DNA of 64,000 nucleotides from assembly GCA_947624175.1 (NCBI GenBank), contig CANQJD010000001.1, forward strand, positions 1,897-65,896. The letters run 5' to 3'. Under the pieces are notes generated by a model that saw only the letters and a program-made list of their open reading frames with translations, made no database searches and was not told the DNA's origin. Positions within the stretch are counted from its first letter, which is position 1. Each line of letters opens with the position of its first letter. The position numbers and the translations under genes are program-made. This DNA is from an uncultured Bacilli bacterium. GTDB taxonomy: Bacteria > Bacillota_I > Bacilli_A > RF39 > UBA660. Positions 14,775-49,580 of the stretch are shown piece after piece.

Positions 14775-15236
14775 TTACTTATTTCTTTGTTCTTTAAAAA
14801 ACTTTTGTAAAATTTCAATACATTTATCTTCTAAAATACCTGTTTTTATTTCAAAACTTGAACTATTTTTATCAGTTTCAAAGATTAAATCTACTATTTT
14901 CTTAAATTTTTGGTCTTGATTAGTAGCACCTACGACAACTTGTTTTATTCTTGATTCTTTGATTGCACTAGCACACATAGGACAAGGAGACATGGTTATA
15001 TATAAAGTGGCATCATTAATTCTCCAATCATGGATTTTATGACTCGCCTTGCGAATTGCTATCATTTCTGCATGATTAGTAATATCATGTGTTTTCTGTC
15101 TTGTATTATGAGCTTTAGCTATAACTTTATCATTTAAAACTAAAACTGCTCCAACTGGTACTTCTTTTTTTTTATAAGCCTTAAAAGCTTCTTTTAAAGC
15201 TAAATTCATATAATATTCATCATTCATATTACACAC
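14775..15236 (-). CDS. tadA: tRNA-specific adenosine deaminase
   Basis: CDA-fold motifs HAEMIAI and PCPMCASA. The start may be the internal MNDEYY. Confidence 0.9.
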   Translation of the reverse strand: MCNMNDEYYMNLALKEAFKAYKKKEVPVGAVLVLNDKVIAKAHNTRQKTHDITNHAEMIAIRKASHKIHDWRINDATLYITMSPCPMCASAIKESRIKQVVVGATNQDQKFKKIVDLIFETDKNSSSFEIKTGILEDKCIEILQKFFKEQRNK

Positions 15237-15247
15237 CTATAAAATAA

Positions 15248-15323
15248 AAGTGCACATAAAAGAGTTATGTTAAGGCTGCTGTCTTCCGACCCTGACCTGG
15301 TTCCATTTCTTTTATTGCACGAG
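15248..15323 (-). ncRNA. ffs: small signal recognition particle RNA (4.5S/scRNA type)
   Basis: The minus strand reads GTGCAATAAAAGA...CCAGGTCAGGGTCGGAAGACAGCAGCC...TCTTTTATGTGCAC. The conserved domain IV motif is flanked by a closing helix formed by the two ends. A TTGCAT-17-TAAAAT promoter lies just upstream on the same strand (about 15329-15357). It sits between tadA and gyrA. The ends are approximate. Confidence 0.8.
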
Positions 15324-15579
15324 TAATATTTTACACTACTTCTTAAATTAATGCAAGTAATTTCTTTCAATTTAAATATTATTTAAAATCATTGTGTCAA
15401 ATTTGTGTTAACTCTATTGACAAGATTTTTTTGTTCATGATATATATAATGTATAATATATGTTTACTAACTCTTGCTATGTTATATAGATGTTTCGCAA
15501 AAAACGGAATTTTCACGAAACATATAGTTTCCTTTATTTATCAAGGATTTATACAAGAAAAAAGATGCTGATTTAAATT

Positions 15580-23638: not shown

Positions 23639-25009
23639 TTACAATAGATTTTGTTTTATTTTATCTACAGTTTCACGGATACTTTTATCTTTTTTTATTT
23701 CTTTTTCTATCTTTTCACAAGCATACATAACGGTAGTATGATCTTTTCCACCAAATTCTAAACCTATTCTTTGATAGGATTCATTTAAAACGTCGCGAGA
23801 TAGAAGCATAGCTATTTGTCTTGGAAATGCAATACTAGCACTTCGCTTTTTTCCTTTTAAATCATCTGATGATATTTGAAAGAAATCTGCAACGACTCTT
23901 TGAATTTTGGCAATATCATTTTTTTCACTGGTTCCTTTACTAACTTCTCCTTTTAAAGCTTCAACGGCTAGTTGTAAGGTTATATCGGCACCTCCCATCA
24001 TCGTTGAATAAATAAGTAATCTATTAATTGCACCTTCAAGTTGTCTTACATCGCTTGTCATATTAGAAGCAATATATTCAATAACTTCTTCTGGGAATGA
24101 TTTATCGATTTTTTCACCATTTATCTTCTTTTTTATTATATTAATTCGAAGTTCTAAATCAGGTGGATAAATATCGACGACGGCACCCCATGTAAACCTG
24201 GTTCGAAGCCTTTCTTCTAAAAGTTTTAAATCATTTGGAGACCTATCTGATGAAATGATTAATTGTTTTTTATTGTCGTGTAATGCAGTAAATGTATGGA
24301 AGAATTCTTGTTGGGTTTGAGTTGCTCTTGCTAAAAATTGAATATCATCAATAATTAAAACATCAATATTTCGGTACTTATCTTTAAAGTATTCAGCATA
24401 ATCATAGTCTTGTTCTTCATTTTTTTCTTTTCGCCCAATGTTTGAAAAATCTGAAATAAACTGTTCACTTGTAACATATAAAACTCGTTTATCAGAATTT
24501 GCTTCGATATAGTTACCAATAGCATGCATTAAATGAGTTTTTCCTAACCCACTATTTCCATAAAGGAACAACGGATTATAAGCAAGACCAGGACTTTCAG
24601 CAACCGCGAATGCCGCCGCATGGGCTAATCTATTACTATTTCCAACCACAAAAGTATCAAAAGTACATTGGGGTTTTAGATTAGATTCATGCCGAAACTT
24701 TTTTGTTTCTTTAACTTGTGGATGTTCAATTTCTTCTTTCTTTTGCTCTTCGATTTTTGATACTTCATCCTCTAATACGAAATCTAAATCATAGATATTT
24801 CCCGTAATATCTGTTAAAGTTTGAATTATAACATCTTGATAAGTTGATTCGATTCTTTGCTTATGGATTATACTTGGTAAAACAATTGTTGCTTTGGTTT
24901 CCGTAATATCTAATAAGTAACTATTTGCAAACCAAGTTGAATATACCATAGAATTAACTTTAGATTGTACCTTTTCTAAGAATTGCTTCCATAAAAGGTC
25001 TTTATTCAT
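23639..25009 (-). CDS. dnaA: chromosomal replication initiator DnaA
   Basis: AAA+ motif (GNSGLGKTHLMHAIGN) and C-terminal DNA-binding domain (GGKDHTTVMYACEKI). I place the start at MNKDLLWKQF (25009) rather than the track start 25042. Confidence 0.93.
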   Translation of the reverse strand: MNKDLLWKQFLEKVQSKVNSMVYSTWFANSYLLDITETKATIVLPSIIHKQRIESTYQDVIIQTLTDITGNIYDLDFVLEDEVSKIEEQKKEEIEHPQVKETKKFRHESNLKPQCTFDTFVVGNSNRLAHAAAFAVAESPGLAYNPLFLYGNSGLGKTHLMHAIGNYIEANSDKRVLYVTSEQFISDFSNIGRKEKNEEQDYDYAEYFKDKYRNIDVLIIDDIQFLARATQTQQEFFHTFTALHDNKKQLIISSDRSPNDLKLLEERLRTRFTWGAVVDIYPPDLELRINIIKKKINGEKIDKSFPEEVIEYIASNMTSDVRQLEGAINRLLIYSTMMGGADITLQLAVEALKGEVSKGTSEKNDIAKIQRVVADFFQISSDDLKGKKRSASIAFPRQIAMLLSRDVLNESYQRIGLEFGGKDHTTVMYACEKIEKEIKKDKSIRETVDKIKQNLL

Positions 25010-25199
25010 TATCCACCTCCTATCATTAATTATCAAAATCACGTATTATAAATGATTATTAATTTGTATAAACCCGTTTTATTCTTTAGTTAAGAGCTTA
25101 TTGAGAATGTCCTCTCTAACTCTTTGTGTTATTATTCTAGTTTATTTTTTATAAAAAAACAATACCTATTGTCAAGTAAAATTAAAAAAAATAAATTAA

Positions 25200-25400
25200 G
25201 AAAAATTGGGAAATAATCCACAATTCATGGTGGAAAACTAGGTGGATTAAAATTTCCCAAAAAAGTTTTCCACATACTTATCCACCGAGTTATCCACATA
25301 TTTTTTTCTTATTTTACAATAAAACTTTAAGGTTTTCCACTTTTCCACAATTTGACTTTTCCACAAGTTAAAAACGTTTTCCACCAAATTGTGGAAAACT
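25200..25400. other. oriC part 1: DnaA-box cluster upstream of dnaA
   Basis: A perfect TTATCCACA lies at 25290-25298. Near-perfect boxes occur at 25214-25222, 25266-25274, 25278-25286, 25341-25349, 25357-25365, 25377-25385 and 25390-25398. Confidence 0.8.
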
Positions 25401-25533
25401 CTCATTTCCCAAAGAAATTTTTCTTTTAAAAAAATTTTTAACTTTACATTTAATAAAAATTGGCTTATTATATTATCATGTTATTTTTAACAGAAATATT
25501 TAGGAGGTCTAAATTTTAGTTTAGAGATTTGGT

Positions 25534-36285: not shown

Positions 36286-38562
36286 ATGGATAAAGAAAAA
36301 AAGGAGAATGAAGTTGTCTATTTAAGATTAGATGATATTCTTCCTAACCAGTTTCAACCACGTGAAGTCTTTGATGAAACCGGACTTCAAGAACTTGCTG
36401 ATTCCATTAAAGAACATGGTGTCATACAACCAGTTATTGTTAGACCTCAAGGAGAGAAGTACGAACTTATAGCTGGAGAGAGACGTTGTAAAGCATCAGC
36501 TCTAGCCGGACTTACCAAAGTACCAGCAATTATCCGGGAAATGGATGATAAAGAAAGTGCTAAAGTATCTTTACTTGAAAATTTACAAAGAAGGAACTTA
36601 AGTGCTATTGAAGAAGCTAGAACTTACAAAAAAATCTTGGAACTTGATAATATGACTCAAGATGAACTTGCTAAAACAATGGGAAAAAGTCAACCAATGA
36701 TTGCTAATAAAATAAGACTTTTAGGTCTGCCTGAAGAAGTTCAAGATGCTTTAATTAAAAATCAAATTTCGGAACGTCATGCCAGGAGTTTATTAAATGT
36801 TAAAAATAAAGAACAACAGTTGATGATGTTAGATAGAATTCGAAATGAAAGATTAACCGTTAGGGAACTTGATGCTGAAATTAAAAAATTAGTTCAACCA
36901 ATTGATCCTAATGAAATTATAAATCAAGAGAGTTCTATGCAAGAAGAAAAAAAAGAGGAAGCAAATGAAGGAGGTGTAGATATGCAACAAAATATGATGA
37001 ATGGTAATATGAATAATAATTTTAATAACAATAATAATATGACTCAAGAATTTAATAATGCAAATAATAATACTTTTAATGATAGCAATATGAATATGGG
37101 AATGCCATCTAATATGAGTGAGCCTATTCCTCAAAATAATCAATTTGGAAATACTCAAAACTTATATGGTAATTTCAGCAATATGGGCTTAAATGATTAT
37201 CAAGGAAGTGGTATGTTTAATAATATTCCAAACTTTAACAATCAAAATATGCAAAATACATCCCCTCTTCCAACTTTTCAAGGAGGATTCTCTAATCCAT
37301 CAACTAATAACTCTAATGAAGGAAATACGTCTTTTATTGAATCACAACCTAATATATCTAATAATATAAATGATAATCGTTTAAATGAGATACCAGGTTT
37401 CAATGATACTCCTTCAAATTCTGATACACCTAATAAAAATTTTAATTCTTTAGGTTCAATGTTTGATGGAAATCCTAACAGTAATAATAATCAAAATCTG
37501 GCTCCTGATTATACAAACGACAATAATAATTCTAATACATTCATTAGTCAAATAAGAGAAGATACTATTAAGCCAAAAGAAAATCAATTCTTACCAAATT
37601 TTGATACACCTAATAACTTTGATAATCAAAATAACTTTAATGATATGTCTAATATGAATAATTTTGATAGTCAAAATGATTTTGGAATGAATAATTTTAT
37701 TAATCAAAGTCAAAATCAAAATACATTTAATGACTTTAATAATAACAATAATATGAACAATATGAATAATGATTTTAGTAATCCAGGTTTAAATAATTTT
37801 GGTGGACCAATTAATGATTTTTCATTTCCTCAAAATAATAATAACAATATGCCATTTAATATGCCTTCAAATAATTTTAATGCTAATCAAGGGGGGTTAT
37901 TTAATCAACCTCTTAACATAGTAAGTGTTCCTGGTAGTGATATGAATAATAATCCAGAAGAAAATGAAAATTCAAAGGACAATGGTCATTTTGATTATGA
38001 AAATGCTAGTCAAAATAATTCAGATGAAAATACTGAATCAGAAAACAATATGCAATCTAACGATGATGAATCTACTGATGAAGAATCTAATGATAAAGAA
38101 AATTTTGATAATCCATTAGATGATGCTTATGAAGATATTTTAAATGTTAAACCAGTAGCAGTTAATCCTGATGAAGAGAAACAAGAAGAAAGTGATGCTG
38201 ATAAAGAAGAGACAAAAGAACAAAGTGAAGATAGTGATACTTCTGAAACAGAGAGTGAAGATACTAGTGAAGAAGTTGAAGTAATTGGAGGTGATTCACC
38301 TTCTGGAGATACTGAAACTAAAGAAAATACAAATGAAACTTCAGAAAAACAAGATTACAAAGAAGATAGTAAAGAAGAAGATAATAAAAAGAAAGATGAT
38401 TATATTCATCTAGAACCAGAAAAAACTATCTTTGATGCAAGAGGTGCTGTTTATGAACTTAAGAAAACAACCGATGCTATTAAACTAAACAATATAAATA
38501 TTGATACCGAAGAAATAGAATTCGATGACTATTATCAAATTACTATCAAAATCAAAAAATAA
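36286..38562 (+). CDS. ParB/Noc-family protein with a very long Asn-rich and acidic low-complexity region
   Basis: The N-terminal ~200 aa form a ParB N-domain plus HTH (GERRCKAS arginine patch, LLENLQRRNLS). It occupies the noc position between rsmG and soj. Residues ~205-690 are low complexity. Confidence 0.8.
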   Translation: MDKEKKENEVVYLRLDDILPNQFQPREVFDETGLQELADSIKEHGVIQPVIVRPQGEKYELIAGERRCKASALAGLTKVPAIIREMDDKESAKVSLLENLQRRNLSAIEEARTYKKILELDNMTQDELAKTMGKSQPMIANKIRLLGLPEEVQDALIKNQISERHARSLLNVKNKEQQLMMLDRIRNERLTVRELDAEIKKLVQPIDPNEIINQESSMQEEKKEEANEGGVDMQQNMMNGNMNNNFNNNNNMTQEFNNANNNTFNDSNMNMGMPSNMSEPIPQNNQFGNTQNLYGNFSNMGLNDYQGSGMFNNIPNFNNQNMQNTSPLPTFQGGFSNPSTNNSNEGNTSFIESQPNISNNINDNRLNEIPGFNDTPSNSDTPNKNFNSLGSMFDGNPNSNNNQNLAPDYTNDNNNSNTFISQIREDTIKPKENQFLPNFDTPNNFDNQNNFNDMSNMNNFDSQNDFGMNNFINQSQNQNTFNDFNNNNNMNNMNNDFSNPGLNNFGGPINDFSFPQNNNNNMPFNMPSNNFNANQGGLFNQPLNIVSVPGSDMNNNPEENENSKDNGHFDYENASQNNSDENTESENNMQSNDDESTDEESNDKENFDNPLDDAYEDILNVKPVAVNPDEEKQEESDADKEETKEQSEDSDTSETESEDTSEEVEVIGGDSPSGDTETKENTNETSEKQDYKEDSKEEDNKKKDDYIHLEPEKTIFDARGAVYELKKTTDAIKLNNINIDTEEIEFDDYYQITIKIKK

Positions 38563-45290: not shown

Positions 45291-47009
45291 ATGGAAGAAA
45301 AAACTAAAAATAATAAGAAAGGTGTAATAATAGCAGGAATAAGTGCAATAGTCTTAATCGCAACCGTTGGAGTATCATTTGCTATTTGGAATTATTTGAG
45401 AGTTGGAGAAAACCAATTGTTAGTTGCTGGAGATATTTATATGAAATTCACGGAATCTAATCAAATAACAATTGAAAATGCCTTACCAAGTGAAGGGCCA
45501 GGCGAAAAATATTTTGAATTTAAAATAGAAGGAAAGAATACCTATAGTAAACCAATTTGGTATGAAATAGACTTACTACATGGAGATGATGACGAGACAA
45601 GAAAAACAAGAATAAAAGATAACTTATTAGCTTTTAAATTAGTAGAAGTTAAAGATGAAAATCAAGAAGAAGTACTAATAGAAAACGGAAGTTATACAGG
45701 ATTAGCAGCCGGAAAAGGAATATATGTAAATACTATACCAGCAGGAACAAAGGACAAAATAATAAGAACTTATAGATTATATATGTGGATATCAAGCAAA
45801 ACAGTAATAGGAAATACCGACGATGCAATCTATGACATGGATACTTGGAATGATGTCTTTGCAAGTATTAAAGTAAATGTAACGGGAGACTTTAATGAAA
45901 AAGAATTACCAACCCCATCAGCAACAGATGTAGTGAAAGATACATTAGGACTACCTGGCGGAGTAATTGGGGTAACAAATGAGAATACATCAACTAAAAC
46001 TGAAAGTGAAAATATAAGAGAATATAGATATTCAGGAACAAATGTAAATAATTATATCTACTTTAATTGTGAAGCTGATGCGACAAAAGAAGATGCAAGT
46101 AGTAAATGTGAATTATGGAGAATAATTGGAGTATTTACAGACAGCAAAGGTGAACATTTAAAAATAGTAAGAGATAATGTGCTATCTGCAGATATGTTTC
46201 CTGAAACTTATACAGTAGATGGTAGAGAATATTATCTAAATAAGGCTATGATAGCTACAGCATTTCCAAACAAAAAATATAGTGTAAAAAAATTAATAGT
46301 TCCAAATAATACAAAAGCAACAATTGAAAAACTTGATTATGAGGAAGTAGGTATGGCAAATTGGAATTATCCAACTGATTACAATTATAATAACGACTGG
46401 GCAACAGCCGGATTACAATATTGGCTAAATACAACAGCTGATGATAATAGTAGAAACCAAGGTTATTTAAGTACATTAAAAGGAAATACTTTAAGTATGA
46501 TAGAAGATACAGAGTATTATTTAGGAACACAAATGTATAATGATGATACAATAAATTCCTTTAAAAATGAAAGAGATGTAAAAAGTTGTCCTGAAAATAC
46601 CGGAACAGTAGAATATTATGAAGATTCAGCAAATTCTGGATGTAATGTATATGCTGGAAATAAAGCAACGTGGACAGGAAAAATAGCATTAATGTATCCT
46701 TCAGATTATGGATTCACTGCCAATAGTACATATTGGACTGGTACTGGATTATCTGATTATTATGATAGAGCTGCCTATACAAGTTGGTTACAAACAACAG
46801 CAAACCATAGTACATACGAATGGCTTTTGTCCCCTTCCTCTGGCAACTCTTATGGTGTGGCTGGCTGGGTCAGCGACGGCGGTGTGGACGACAGCGGTGT
46901 CGGCAACCTCGGGGCGGTGCGGCCAAGTCTTAATCTGAAATCCAATACAAATATTACAGGGGGTGATGGAAGTAAATTGAAACCATACTTTGTAAATTCG
47001 GGACAATAG
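45291..47009 (+). CDS. DGR target protein: N-terminally membrane-anchored surface protein with C-terminal variable region
   Basis: N-terminal TM segment (GVIIAGISAIVLIATVGVSFAIW). The C-terminus WLLSPSSGNSYGVAGWVSDGGVDDSGVGNLGAVRPSL is encoded by the VR. A paralogue lies at 53694..55259. Confidence 0.85.
   Translation: MEEKTKNNKKGVIIAGISAIVLIATVGVSFAIWNYLRVGENQLLVAGDIYMKFTESNQITIENALPSEGPGEKYFEFKIEGKNTYSKPIWYEIDLLHGDDDETRKTRIKDNLLAFKLVEVKDENQEEVLIENGSYTGLAAGKGIYVNTIPAGTKDKIIRTYRLYMWISSKTVIGNTDDAIYDMDTWNDVFASIKVNVTGDFNEKELPTPSATDVVKDTLGLPGGVIGVTNENTSTKTESENIREYRYSGTNVNNYIYFNCEADATKEDASSKCELWRIIGVFTDSKGEHLKIVRDNVLSADMFPETYTVDGREYYLNKAMIATAFPNKKYSVKKLIVPNNTKATIEKLDYEEVGMANWNYPTDYNYNNDWATAGLQYWLNTTADDNSRNQGYLSTLKGNTLSMIEDTEYYLGTQMYNDDTINSFKNERDVKSCPENTGTVEYYEDSANSGCNVYAGNKATWTGKIALMYPSDYGFTANSTYWTGTGLSDYYDRAAYTSWLQTTANHSTYEWLLSPSSGNSYGVAGWVSDGGVDDSGVGNLGAVRPSLNLKSNTNITGGDGSKLKPYFVNSGQ
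46822..46927 (+). repeat. DGR variable repeat (VR)
   Basis: Gap-free 106-nt alignment to 49009-49114 with 22 mismatches, all at TR adenines. The 3' end, GGGCGGTGCGGCCAAG, is IMH-like. Confidence 0.92.
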
Positions 47010-47040
47010 GTTTCCGCGCGGAATAAGAACCGCGGGAAAC
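47010..47040 (+). other. GC-rich hairpin directly after the target gene stop codon
   Basis: gtttcc(g)cgcgg / ccgcgggaaac forms an 11-bp stem with one bulge and an 8-nt loop. An alternative pairing is tccgcgc (47013-47019) with gcgcgga (47043-47049). Confidence 0.6.
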
Positions 47041-47109
47041 GGGCGCGGATTTACATAAAATATCAATTAAAGCAGTAACTGTCGAAGACAGAGATTTATA
47101 TTTATTAGG

Positions 47110-47131
47110 TTGGCACGCGAATGCGTGCCAA
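47110..47131 (+). other. perfect 9-bp GC-rich hairpin (ttggcacgc-gaat-gcgtgccaa)
   Basis: Seen directly in the sequence. No T-run follows it. Confidence 0.6.
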
Positions 47132-47181
47132 ACCACCACCTTTGAAAAACATAAGACATAAAGTCAAAAAATAGATAAAAC

Positions 47182-47568
47182 ATGGAAGAAAGGAATATTG
47201 TTAATAATATGAATATTATTAAGATAAGAAAAAGTGGGACTTTCTATAGTGTCTTTGATGATGACTGCTATATATTGTATTTTTTGTTAGGTTATCAAAT
47301 AAATAATAGTAAAGTAGGATTTCCAAAATCAGCTCTTAATAAAGTAATTAATATATTAGAAGAAAATAAAATTAATTATGAAATAATAGGAGAAGATAGG
47401 AAGCAAAACTTTAAAACATTAAATAGATATGAAAAATTTGTTAAAATTGGAAAAGAAAAATATAGTAAAGATAGTCATTATGAAGACTTAATAGATAAAT
47501 TAAAATGTACTACACCAGAGAAATTAGATAAAATATTATTGACTATTGAAACTATTTTAAATGAATGA
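47182..47568 (+). CDS. small MutS-domain-I-like protein (DGR accessory, MSL-like)
   Basis: IKIRKSGTFYSVFDDDCYILYFLLGY...KVGFPKSALNKVINILEENKINYEII parallels the MutS N-terminal mismatch-binding domain (GDFYELFYDDA...AGIPYHAVENYLAKLV...VAICEQ). Its stop overlaps the Avd start by 8 nt. Confidence 0.55.
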   Translation: MEERNIVNNMNIIKIRKSGTFYSVFDDDCYILYFLLGYQINNSKVGFPKSALNKVINILEENKINYEIIGEDRKQNFKTLNRYEKFVKIGKEKYSKDSHYEDLIDKLKCTTPEKLDKILLTIETILNE

Positions 47569-47902
47569 AGAAAAATTTATTGTTGCTAAACATATAAAAG
47601 AATTTATAATGATGCTTGATGATTATTTAATTAATTATCCAAGAAAATATTATGAACTTCGAAATAGATTAGTAAATGATAGTTATGAATTATTAGAAAT
47701 TATTTATACGGCTAATTATATGGAAGTTGAAGAAAGAAAAAGTTTACAAGTTAAAGGTATTATGAAAATTAGTTTAATTGATTTTTATATAGAACAAAGT
47801 TTTAAGAAAAGGATAATAAGTGAAAAACAGTCTATTAGATTAAGTAAGAAGTTATTAAATATTAATAAATTATTAAGAAGTTGGTATGAATATAAATATT
47901 AA
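47561..47902 (+). CDS. avd: Avd-like accessory variability determinant (four-helix-bundle family)
   Basis: 113 aa, helical and basic, translationally coupled to the RT by a 17-nt overlap. Size and position are typical of Avd. The family call is from memory of the pattern only. Confidence 0.6.
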   Translation: MNEEKFIVAKHIKEFIMMLDDYLINYPRKYYELRNRLVNDSYELLEIIYTANYMEVEERKSLQVKGIMKISLIDFYIEQSFKKRIISEKQSIRLSKKLLNINKLLRSWYEYKY

Positions 47903-48986
47903 AGATATAATGGATATCTATGATTTAGAGATTAGAAAGAATTGTCGGAATAAGAGAAAAGTTTATGTATTTGAAAAGAATAAGATGCAAAATATCATAG
48001 ATATTTATAATGAACTTACTAATATGAGTTATTATCCTAGTAAATATAATATCTTTATAATTAGAGAACCAAAGTATAGAATAGTAATGTCTTTAAAAAT
48101 AAAAGACAAAGTTATTAATCATTATTTAGCAAGATATGTTTTAATACCTAAATTAGATAAATATTTAGATATGAGAATAGTTGCAACTAGAAAAGGTTAT
48201 GGAACTGATTATGGAATTAAATTAGTTAAAAAATATATAGAAATTAATAAGAAATATGGAAAGTTTTATATACTAAAAATAGATATTAAGAAATATTTTT
48301 ATAATATAGACCATGAAGTATTAAAGAGTTTACTTGAAAGTAAATTAGATAGTAATGAATATACATTAATTAGTAGAATAATCGATAGTACGAATAGTAG
48401 TTATATAAATTCTGACATTGATAAAGAAGTTAGGAATATGATTGAAAAAAGACCATATGATAAAGATAAGTTACTAGATTTACCAAGATATAATGAAGGA
48501 AAAGGACTAGGACTTGGTGCTATGACAAGTCAGTTTTTATCAATATATTATTTATCTAAATTAGACCATTATATAATCCATGATTTACATTTAAAATATA
48601 TGGTACATTATATGGATGATATAATAATAATTCATCATGATAAAGAATATTTATATGAAGCTTTAAGTAAAATAGAAAAAATAATCCATGATGTATATAA
48701 ATTAGATGTTAATAAAAAGAAAACCAAGATAGTAAGTAGTAAAGAAGGATTTTGTTTTTTAGGATATCGATTTATAGTTAGAAATAATAAAACAATTATG
48801 AAGATAAAGAGAGATACTATAACTAAAATAAAAAGAAGAGTTAAAGAAGTTAAATATTTATATAGTAATAATAAAATAAGTTTTGAGAGATGTTTTTCAA
48901 GTATTAATACTTATCTTTATAGTTTTAAATATACAAGTAATTTTAAAGTAGTAAAAATAGTAAATAAGTATTTTTTTAAAGGGTAG
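47886..48986 (+). CDS. DGR-type reverse transcriptase
   Basis: RT motifs include YMDDIIII (YxDD) and GLGLGAMTSQFLSIYYL, which carries the [ILV]GxxxSQ signature of DGR RTs. No maturase, endonuclease or retron msr/msd context. Confidence 0.9.
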   Translation: MNINIKDIMDIYDLEIRKNCRNKRKVYVFEKNKMQNIIDIYNELTNMSYYPSKYNIFIIREPKYRIVMSLKIKDKVINHYLARYVLIPKLDKYLDMRIVATRKGYGTDYGIKLVKKYIEINKKYGKFYILKIDIKKYFYNIDHEVLKSLLESKLDSNEYTLISRIIDSTNSSYINSDIDKEVRNMIEKRPYDKDKLLDLPRYNEGKGLGLGAMTSQFLSIYYLSKLDHYIIHDLHLKYMVHYMDDIIIIHHDKEYLYEALSKIEKIIHDVYKLDVNKKKTKIVSSKEGFCFLGYRFIVRNNKTIMKIKRDTITKIKRRVKEVKYLYSNNKISFERCFSSINTYLYSFKYTSNFKVVKIVNKYFFKG

Positions 48987-49008: not shown

Positions 49009-49114
49009 GGCTTTTGTCCCCTTCCTCTAACAACTCTAATAATGTGGCTAACTGGAACAACGACGGCAATGTGAACAACAACAATGTCAACAACAACAGG
49101 GCGGTGCGGCCAAG
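49009..49114 (+). repeat. DGR template repeat (TR)
   Basis: Begins 22 nt after the RT stop. Read in the VR frame it is a run of AAC/AAT codons: LLSPSSNNSNNVANWNNDGNVNNNNVNNNRAVRP. Confidence 0.92.
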
Positions 49115-49580
49115 CCCTTTATAATTAGAATATTGGATTAAGGTTTAATATGTATATGTAAAGGACAATCCTATCCGTGATTTTATCAGAAGGGAAATAT
49201 AGATAACTTGGTATACGTACTTAAGTTTAGAACTATATATGAGTAAATATAATAGATATTTGTTTTGTAAAAGGTTATATAATTGTTATTTAATATTAAT
49301 AATAGATAAAGATAAAATAATAAGTTTTGATGAAGATTTAAAAATAATAGAATTATATGGAATAGAAACAATAAAGCAGGAAATTAATTATTTAATATTA
49401 GATGGTTTAAATATTAAATTATATAAAAATAATAATAACTATTTTTACTACTTTAAGATTAGTTTGATTAAAGATATTATAGATTACATTATGACTATTA
49501 ATTAGTCTTTTTTTTATAAAAATTAAAAAAAGGTCTTAACTAATCTCGTTTTTATGGTATACTTATAATAGGAGAAAAAT

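Follow-up and report, generated by a model that had tools for sequence, protein, structure and literature searches.

Introduction

The accessory proteins of diversity-generating retroelements (DGRs) include a MutS-like (MSL) class, which was named by Wu et al. 2018 (NAR 46:11, PMC5758913) on the basis of 16 of 372 DGRs and comprises proteins of 112-283 amino acids (aa) with an isoelectric point (pI) of 7.2 +/- 1.7. In that survey, MSL-bearing DGRs ("Architecture D") always have avd and never HRDC, and one of them is the DGR of Legionella pneumophila Corby (PMC5758913). Three DGR reverse transcriptases (RTs) were found to carry a weak MutS_I-like C-terminal extension, and GC-rich inverted repeats downstream of the initiation of mutagenic homing (IMH) element were described as essential for efficient homing of the Bordetella and Legionella DGRs; the Phe-x-Glu motif of MutS is not discussed in the main text (PMC5758913). 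Here, we describe an MSL gene within a complete DGR of an uncultured Bacilli bacterium. The DNA analysed is a stretch of 64,000 nucleotides (nt) (GCA_947624175.1, contig CANQJD010000001.1, positions 1,897-65,896, forward strand), which we refer to as the window, and coordinates without a locus number are those of the window.

Two other lines of work bear on this class. One is a study that named Msl in the Bacteroides DGRs Bfr, Bth and Bun, did not test its function, and showed for a Bacteroides DGR without Msl that deletion of host mutS raised retrohoming 5- to 10-fold in an all-or-nothing manner (Macadangdang et al., bioRxiv 10.1101/2024.11.15.621889). The other used dominant-negative MutL E32K to suppress mismatch repair for a DGR in E. 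coli, with a rationale that cites MutS-like homologues (bioRxiv 10.64898/2026.07.21.739853). How cDNA enters the target, and how a mismatch-heavy heteroduplex survives there, is an open question in DGR biology. A conserved protein that is locked to DGRs and derives from the part of MutS that senses mismatches is the obvious natural candidate for handling this.

Results

The MSL protein resembles domain I of MutS

The MSL gene is a 128-aa open reading frame (ORF) at 47182-47568 (+), between the DGR target gene and avd. A preliminary description of the window, made from the letters alone, had likened its first ~70 residues to the N-terminal domain of MutS and had referred to an MSL accessory class noted in large DGR surveys. 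The class is the one defined in 2018 (PMC5758913), and the likeness to MutS is borne out by the family profile, by hhalign and by Foldseek, as follows. On its own, the window protein has no match in Pfam (E<=1) or NCBIfam, and a search of PHROGs gave only a marginal match of unknown function. The check proposed in the preliminary description, a comparison with Pfam MutS_I (PF01624), is thus negative for the window protein by itself and positive for 11 of 37 family members searched individually (best E 9e-11). We used two family alignments for profile searches: A1, a narrow family profile, and A3, a broad alignment that includes divergent cassette-encoded relatives and is too divergent for use in a locus search. 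Searched against all PDB sequences, the A3 profile matched human MSH6 (1.9e-8), Taq MutS (1e-6) and E. coli MutS (5e-6), and hhalign against residues 1-135 of E. coli MutS gave a probability of 94% (E 1.4e-7). The A1 profile gave nothing in the PDB but weak matches to the abscisic acid receptor PYL3 (E 0.04), which were rejected as spurious, since both the A3 profile and the structure search favour MutS.

We built an AlphaFold2 model from the MSL family alignment (mean pLDDT 89.4, pTM 0.73). The modelled fold consists of a beta-beta-alpha-beta-alpha-beta unit followed by two long helices (residues 83-127) that lie outside the MutS-aligned stretch. The structural comparison suggested in the preliminary description gave a uniform answer: all of the top 50 Foldseek matches in the PDB are MutS, MSH6 or MSH3, nearly all of them aligned over 62-89 columns, with a root-mean-square deviation of 1.2-1.9 Å to MSH6. 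The PDB matches include the E38A, E38T and E38Q mutants of E. coli MutS (1wbb, 1wb9 and 1wbd, respectively). In a viral structure library, the best matches are small phage "MutS domain I" proteins, followed by giant-virus MutS. Profile comparisons and the predicted structure together indicate that the N-terminal ~70 residues of MSL are homologous to MutS domain I.

The hhalign residue map places G19-T-F21-Y-S23 of MSL on G34-D-F36-Y-E38 of MutS. F21 therefore corresponds to F36 and S23 to E38, in agreement with the earlier reading that MSL retains the Phe of the mismatch motif but not its Glu. The label "catalytic Glu" given to the lost residue was incorrect, however, as Glu38 is a residue of mismatch discrimination and repair authorisation. 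In E. coli MutS, it is reportedly needed both to authorise repair and to discriminate against homoduplex (Lebbink et al. 2006). The invariant or nearly invariant MSL residues G19, F21, D28, G46, F47 and P48 map to MutS G34, F36, D43, G70, I71 and P72, and the core motifs G-x-F-Y...D-D-[AC] and G-F-P are conserved in the family. Among 100 unique relatives in which the motif was found, the Phe is present in every one, and the position equivalent to E38 is occupied by N (30), S (24), R (9), I and many other residues, with Glu in just two. The full Phe-x-Glu (GNFYEVF) occurs among these 100 MSLs only in two loci, L048 (818-1219) and L055 (963-1256). The subfamily to which the window protein belongs does not have the N-terminal helix seen in MutS and in more divergent MSLs. 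We found no trace of MutS_II to MutS_V (connector, core/lever, clamp and ABC ATPase) in the 119-128-aa MSL or in the cassette; MSL is therefore not a repair enzyme and not a MutS.

The MSL ORF is a conserved gene

The ORF exists where the preliminary description placed it, with a TGA stop codon 8 nt beyond the avd ATG at 47561 (an 8-nt overlap). Its status as a gene stands, and its length of 128 aa probably does not. Most homologues are 119 aa long and begin at Met10 of the window protein (ATG 47209); a purine-rich, Shine-Dalgarno-like GAAAGGA lies inside the nominal first nine codons and is found again ahead of the start codon at related loci; and the nominal N-terminal residues (about 1-8) are modelled with a pLDDT below 50. 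For these three reasons, we conclude that the start codon is probably ATG 47209 and the protein 119 aa. The pI is 7.67 for the 128-aa form and 8.41 for the 119-aa form.

We found 38 close homologues with 50-97% identity and conserved length. A profile search of 1.84 billion cluster representatives (clusters defined at 50% identity) returned 1,005 clusters at E<=1e-3 and 428 at E<=1e-10, and the best 150 clusters are all small proteins of 52-265 aa. Pairwise ratios of nonsynonymous to synonymous substitution (dN/dS) against 11 homologous loci are 0.16-0.31. Judged by this sequence conservation, the MSL ORF is a real gene under purifying selection. No relatives were found in IMG/VR viral contigs (A1 profile), or in INPHARED annotated phages or PLSDB plasmids (tblastn); hence, this MSL clade looks chromosomal rather than phage- or plasmid-borne.

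MSL is part of a complete DGR

The cassette around MSL is a complete DGR with the gene order target/VR - MSL - avd - RT - TR, where VR is the variable repeat and TR the template repeat. The target (variable protein) gene at 45291-47009 (+) encodes a protein of 572 aa that has a hydrophobic anchor in its N-terminal part and, at its C-terminus, a variable region ending in ...GAVRPSLNL; a Pfam scan of its product gave no family match, and a homologous target gene lies upstream of MSL in locus L060 (E 2.6e-96). The VR occupies 46822-46927 (+) (106 nt, ~61% G+C), and the TR 49009-49114 (+) (106 nt, 34 adenines), with 15 in-frame AAY codons counted over 49009-49124. TR and VR show 22 differences, every one of them at a TR adenine. 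Their last 16 nt are identical (VR 46912-46927, GGGCGGTGCGGCCAAG; TR 49099-49114), GC-rich and IMH-like. Downstream of MSL, avd (47561-47902, +) encodes 113 aa with a pI of 9.3 and matches bAvd (2e-6), NF033474 (1.5e-7) and phrog_3206 (4.5e-11). The RT gene (47886-48986, +), the start of which overlaps the end of avd by 17 nt, encodes 366 aa that match RVT_1 (1.3e-18) and phrog_1423 (4e-72), with LGAMTSQ (motif 4, of the [I/L]GxxxSQ type) at residue 210 and YMDD at residue 242. The cassette thus has all the hallmarks of a DGR: the RT motif, a TR/VR pair that differs only at TR adenines, and repeats whose 3' end is GC-rich and resembles an IMH. HRDC had no match in the Pfam scan of the cassette ORFs.

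To place this arrangement in context, we examined 57 related loci (designated by L numbers) on contigs from one genome per species. The loci were found by motifs of the MSL protein alone, and the sample is therefore not biased towards RTs. MAGs (metagenome-assembled genomes) with such cassettes include CANQMV01, CANRIE01 and JAFURC01. A DGR-type RT lies beside MSL in 52 of the 57, almost always in the order MSL-avd-RT. The other five are decayed remnants: four contain truncated or frameshifted MSL genes, and one a full-length MSL followed by a short Avd remnant. Homologues of MSL are accordingly neighbours of DGR RTs, the outcome on which the preliminary description had made its reading depend. 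MSL and avd overlap in 42 of 45 pairs, by 4-68 nt, indicating that translational coupling is conserved; the earlier proposal of a DGR accessory gene co-translated with the DGR machinery is in line with this count. A further intact MSL copy, in L060-L062 (71% identical; L060 6001-7355), follows an intact homologous target gene next to the S10 ribosomal operon. In these loci, a stop codon divides avd into two parts (70 + 41 aa), the RT is represented by N-terminal fragments only and there is no TR; the locus is a decayed DGR cassette. From gene content across these loci, we conclude that the linkage of MSL to DGR cassettes is near-obligate.

Some cassettes from Clostridia MAGs contain two or three MSL paralogues (L034, L035, L036, L039, L040, L043 and L054). 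One copy is located upstream of avd, and another, more MutS-like (SKLF..Y..LK...GIF[YF]I), is on the opposite strand, where, depending on the locus, it lies beside either the RT gene or an additional avd-like ORF. A third copy, of 185-196 aa, is present in L035 and L054. Separately, P0144 (L059 197-994) is a 265-aa protein in which ~85 N-terminal residues matching MSL positions 21-106 are followed by a Glycos_transf_1 domain that makes up the rest. Fusion, deletion and chimeric assembly are all conceivable origins, and the 1.1-kb metagenomic contig that carries it is too short to interpret.

Hairpins separate the target gene from MSL

Directly 3' of the target stop codon is a GC-rich hairpin (hairpin 1, 47010-47040, +) with a conserved 6-bp outer stem (GTTTCC/GGAAAC), a 1-nt bulge and a loop of 3-12 nt. 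The sequence of its inner stem (5-6 bp) varies among loci while the pairing is kept. Ten loci share this architecture, always in the equivalent place, and it has no other occurrence in 457 kb; the search used a narrow, exact pattern, which matched 10 of about 58 MSL loci. In the relatives, the hairpin is at L001 125-155, L002 955-986, L006 1853-1884, L008 2933-2962, L010 877-906, L012 960-989, L013 4809-4838, L049 253-283 and L060 5820-5854. Hairpin 1 is probably either a terminator or the GC-rich inverted repeat that about one-third of DGRs are known to have downstream of the IMH. Between the target gene and MSL there is also another GC-rich hairpin (GGTTGGCACGC-GAAT-GCGTGCCAAACC; 47108-47134, +), with analogous counterparts (CCAAGGCAAAG...CTTTGTCTTGG) at L006, L013 and L060.

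The DGR is located near the replication origin of the host chromosome

The window has a G+C content of 27% and spans the chromosomal replication origin, with dnaA, gyrB, gyrA, dnaX, mfd, gidA, a ParB-like gene and leuS present. Since these surrounding genes are those of a bacterial chromosome around its origin, the DGR is chromosomal. The origin region is at ~25100-25500, beside dnaA (23639-25042, -). Genes to its left (dnaA, gyrB, gyrA, dnaX and mfd) are on the minus strand and those to its right on the plus strand. The DGR lies ~20 kb to the right of the origin and is co-oriented with the replication fork; hence, an antisense cDNA would pair with the lagging-strand template, like a recombineering oligonucleotide.

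The closest public sequence is locus L001, from a rabbit-gut "uncultured Bacilli" MAG, with 95% identity across the cassette. Similarity between the two ends at window position 49298, and the neighbourhood downstream of the cassette, beyond position 2416 in L001, differs between the genomes; the cassette could therefore be mobile. Just 3' of the TR is an 88-aa ORF (49239-49505, +) without a family match. The ParB-like protein (36286-38562, +) is unusually long at 758 aa: ParB_N and HTH_ParB cover only its first ~200 residues, and the remaining ~550 have no family assignment. Rfam matched a T-box leader (699-886, -; 105.7 bits) and the small signal recognition particle (SRP) RNA (15234-15331, -; 57.7 bits) in the window and nothing else, with no match in the DGR cassette or the DGR RNA region.

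Discussion

We consider it almost certain that the ORF encodes an MSL-class protein that is a homologue of MutS domain I and a component of the DGR. What such a protein does is less clear. Our preferred reading, to which we assign a probability of roughly 0.4, is the hypothesis that MSL binds the mismatched heteroduplex without licensing its repair and blocks host MutS. MSL shares an operon with Avd and RT and is produced by way of translational coupling. The RT-Avd complex would make adenine-mutagenised cDNA, the cDNA would then pair with the VR, and the Phe wedge of MSL would bind the resulting, densely mismatched cDNA:VR heteroduplex; binding to the RNA:cDNA hybrid is an alternative. Having neither the connector, clamp and ATPase domains nor an equivalent of Glu38, MSL would be unable to signal to MutL. 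Acting locally as a decoy, it could then prevent host MutS from restoring the parental VR from the heteroduplex, with more diversified VRs as the outcome.

We favour a decoy that does not trigger repair because the protein is a domain-I-only form of MutS, because the Glu is lost, and because MutS repair signalling requires the ATPase and connector domains. Circumstantially, an anti-repair role is also suggested by the increase in retrohoming upon mutS deletion (bioRxiv 10.1101/2024.11.15.621889) and by the use of MutL E32K in the E. coli DGR system (bioRxiv 10.64898/2026.07.21.739853). The MutS_I-like extensions of three DGR RTs suggest that the domain may work physically next to the RT. We regard as possible, and as rather doubtful, the specific proposal that MSL mimics the MutS sensor and, by coating the heteroduplex of VR with adenine-mutagenised cDNA, shuts down host mismatch repair locally; under that proposal, a Phe that is always kept and a Glu that is dispensable would be the signature of binding without repair authorisation.

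Several points weigh against the decoy hypothesis. We know of no case in which isolated MutS domain I binds DNA stably without the clamp domains, and ~22 mismatches per event would require many MSL copies or cooperative binding. The Bordetella DGR requires neither MutS nor MSL, and mismatch repair is missing from some reduced-genome relatives. For the host, an uncultured Bacilli lineage of the gut with low G+C, MutS and MutL were not found among the 10 window ORFs scanned, which are nearly all of the largest (mfd, gyrA, gyrB, dnaX, dnaA, gidA, leuS, the ParB-like gene, VanY and one unassigned), a scan confined to the window. The C-terminal helices could instead point to a purely protein-binding role. 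The preliminary description held that no function is established for the class, and in keeping with this we found no functional study of, or experiment on, any MSL in the searched literature. Finally, the Msl-bearing Bacteroides DGRs are not the constitutively active ones (bioRxiv 10.1101/2024.11.15.621889).

The main rival, which we judge to be possible but on balance unlikely, is that MSL assists the RT-Avd ribonucleoprotein, or the integration step, as a positive cofactor. It would hold on to mismatched base pairs, either at the junction of cDNA and VR or within the hybrid of TR-RNA and cDNA. Mispaired primer ends could in this way be stabilised while adenines are mutagenised; alternatively, MSL could deliver the cDNA to the target site and so "mark" it for retrohoming. 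The conserved translational coupling of MSL to avd and the near-universal MSL-avd-RT order fit such a role, as does the MutS_I-like C-terminal extension of some DGR RTs (PMC5758913). The two additional helices at the C-terminus could provide a docking surface for the helical bundle of Avd, and the two or three MSL paralogues of some cassettes hint at oligomeric assemblies. However, contact of MSL with Avd or RT is purely hypothetical, and ~96% of DGRs, including that of Bordetella, mutagenise and home without MSL, so that it is not a core requirement (PMC5758913). A further proposal, that the MutS-like fold is a relic reused as a protein-protein adaptor or regulator with no nucleic-acid binding, draws on the loss of the motif Glu at a freely variable position, on the missing N-terminal helix of the window subfamily and on a pI that is only mildly basic (7.7-8.4). 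We think it improbable, because the mismatch-stacking Phe is present in 100 of 100 relatives with the motif, and the conservation of G-x-F-Y...D-D-[AC] and G-F-P is hard to explain unless a DNA-facing surface is still used.

It is also conceivable, though still less probable, that MSL recognises hairpin or cruciform DNA downstream of the target and so helps to define the site of cDNA integration. MutS-family proteins can bind branched or distorted DNA. A hairpin with preserved pairing separates the target stop from MSL in 10 related loci, and inverted repeats downstream of the IMH are essential for efficient homing in Bordetella and Legionella (PMC5758913). Nevertheless, the Bordetella hairpin works without MSL, the exact pattern occurs in only 10 of about 58 MSL loci (in a narrow search), the co-occurrence may reflect nothing but gene order, and nothing ties domain I alone to hairpin binding. 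As for the ORF being a chance frame or a decaying pseudogene, a view that could appeal to the window protein alone matching no Pfam, NCBIfam or informative PHROG family, it is refuted by the conservation and selection data: dN/dS of 0.16-0.31, 38 length-conserved homologues, 1,005 clusters, a confident fold and a conserved position in the cassette.

The MSL class has been known since 2018 but is uncharacterised, and the window gene is itself an ordinary member. The class is far larger than the 16 published cases, with more than 1,000 clusters at 50% identity. Our survey adds the near-obligate linkage to DGRs, the coupling to avd, the retention of the Phe in all relatives and of the Glu in almost none, and a minimal 119-aa form. 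It also yields a testable prediction, namely epistasis between msl and host mutS, and MSL is small enough for convenient biochemistry. Should MSL prove to be a mimic of the MutS sensor, it would be a naturally occurring anti-repair factor specific to its locus, and would offer a ready-made part for directed evolution based on DGRs and recombineering.

Comparison with known systems

Compared with domain I of MutS and MSH6 (E. coli MutS, 1E3M; Taq MutS, 1EWQ; human MSH6, 2O8B), MSL has a common fold over ~62-89 aligned columns and shares G-x-F-Y-x-x-[FY]-x-D-D, G-[IF]-P and the mismatch-stacking Phe (F36 in E. coli). It differs in the replacement of Glu38 (by Ser, and variably across the family), in a shortened loop equivalent to MutS residues 57-67, and in two long helices that take the place of the C-terminal strands. 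Domain-I-only proteins are also encoded by uncultured phages (BFVD A0A8S5PL02, 74 aa; A0A8S5L9N2, 84 aa; A0A8S5PPT8, 153 aa). These "MutS domain I" proteins are the best structural matches of MSL in the viral library (E 3e-4 to 1e-3), with a sequence identity of 15-25%.

The resemblance to MutL E32K, which serves in oligonucleotide recombineering as well as in engineered E. coli DGR systems, is one of functional analogy only, in that both would stop repair from erasing edits alongside integration of single-stranded DNA or cDNA. MSL is unrelated to it in sequence, and whereas MutL E32K is engineered and acts at the MutL step, MSL is natural and its anti-repair role is hypothesised. The Msl-bearing Bacteroides DGRs belong to another phylum, and their targets are pilus tip proteins, in contrast to the membrane-anchored protein without a Pfam match that is the target here.

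The closest comparison is with the MSL class of Wu et al. Like its members, the window protein is small (119/128 aa), remotely homologous to MutS and encoded in a DGR with avd and without HRDC, and its pI of 7.7-8.4 falls within the 7.2 +/- 1.7 of the class. All of the features that we examined agree, with the 16 reference MSLs represented by the description of their class, and we conclude that the window protein is a member of the MSL class. Relative to those 16, it is a minimal form that lacks the N-terminal helix, and it belongs to a large, previously unsurveyed clade from uncultured gut Bacilli and Clostridia.

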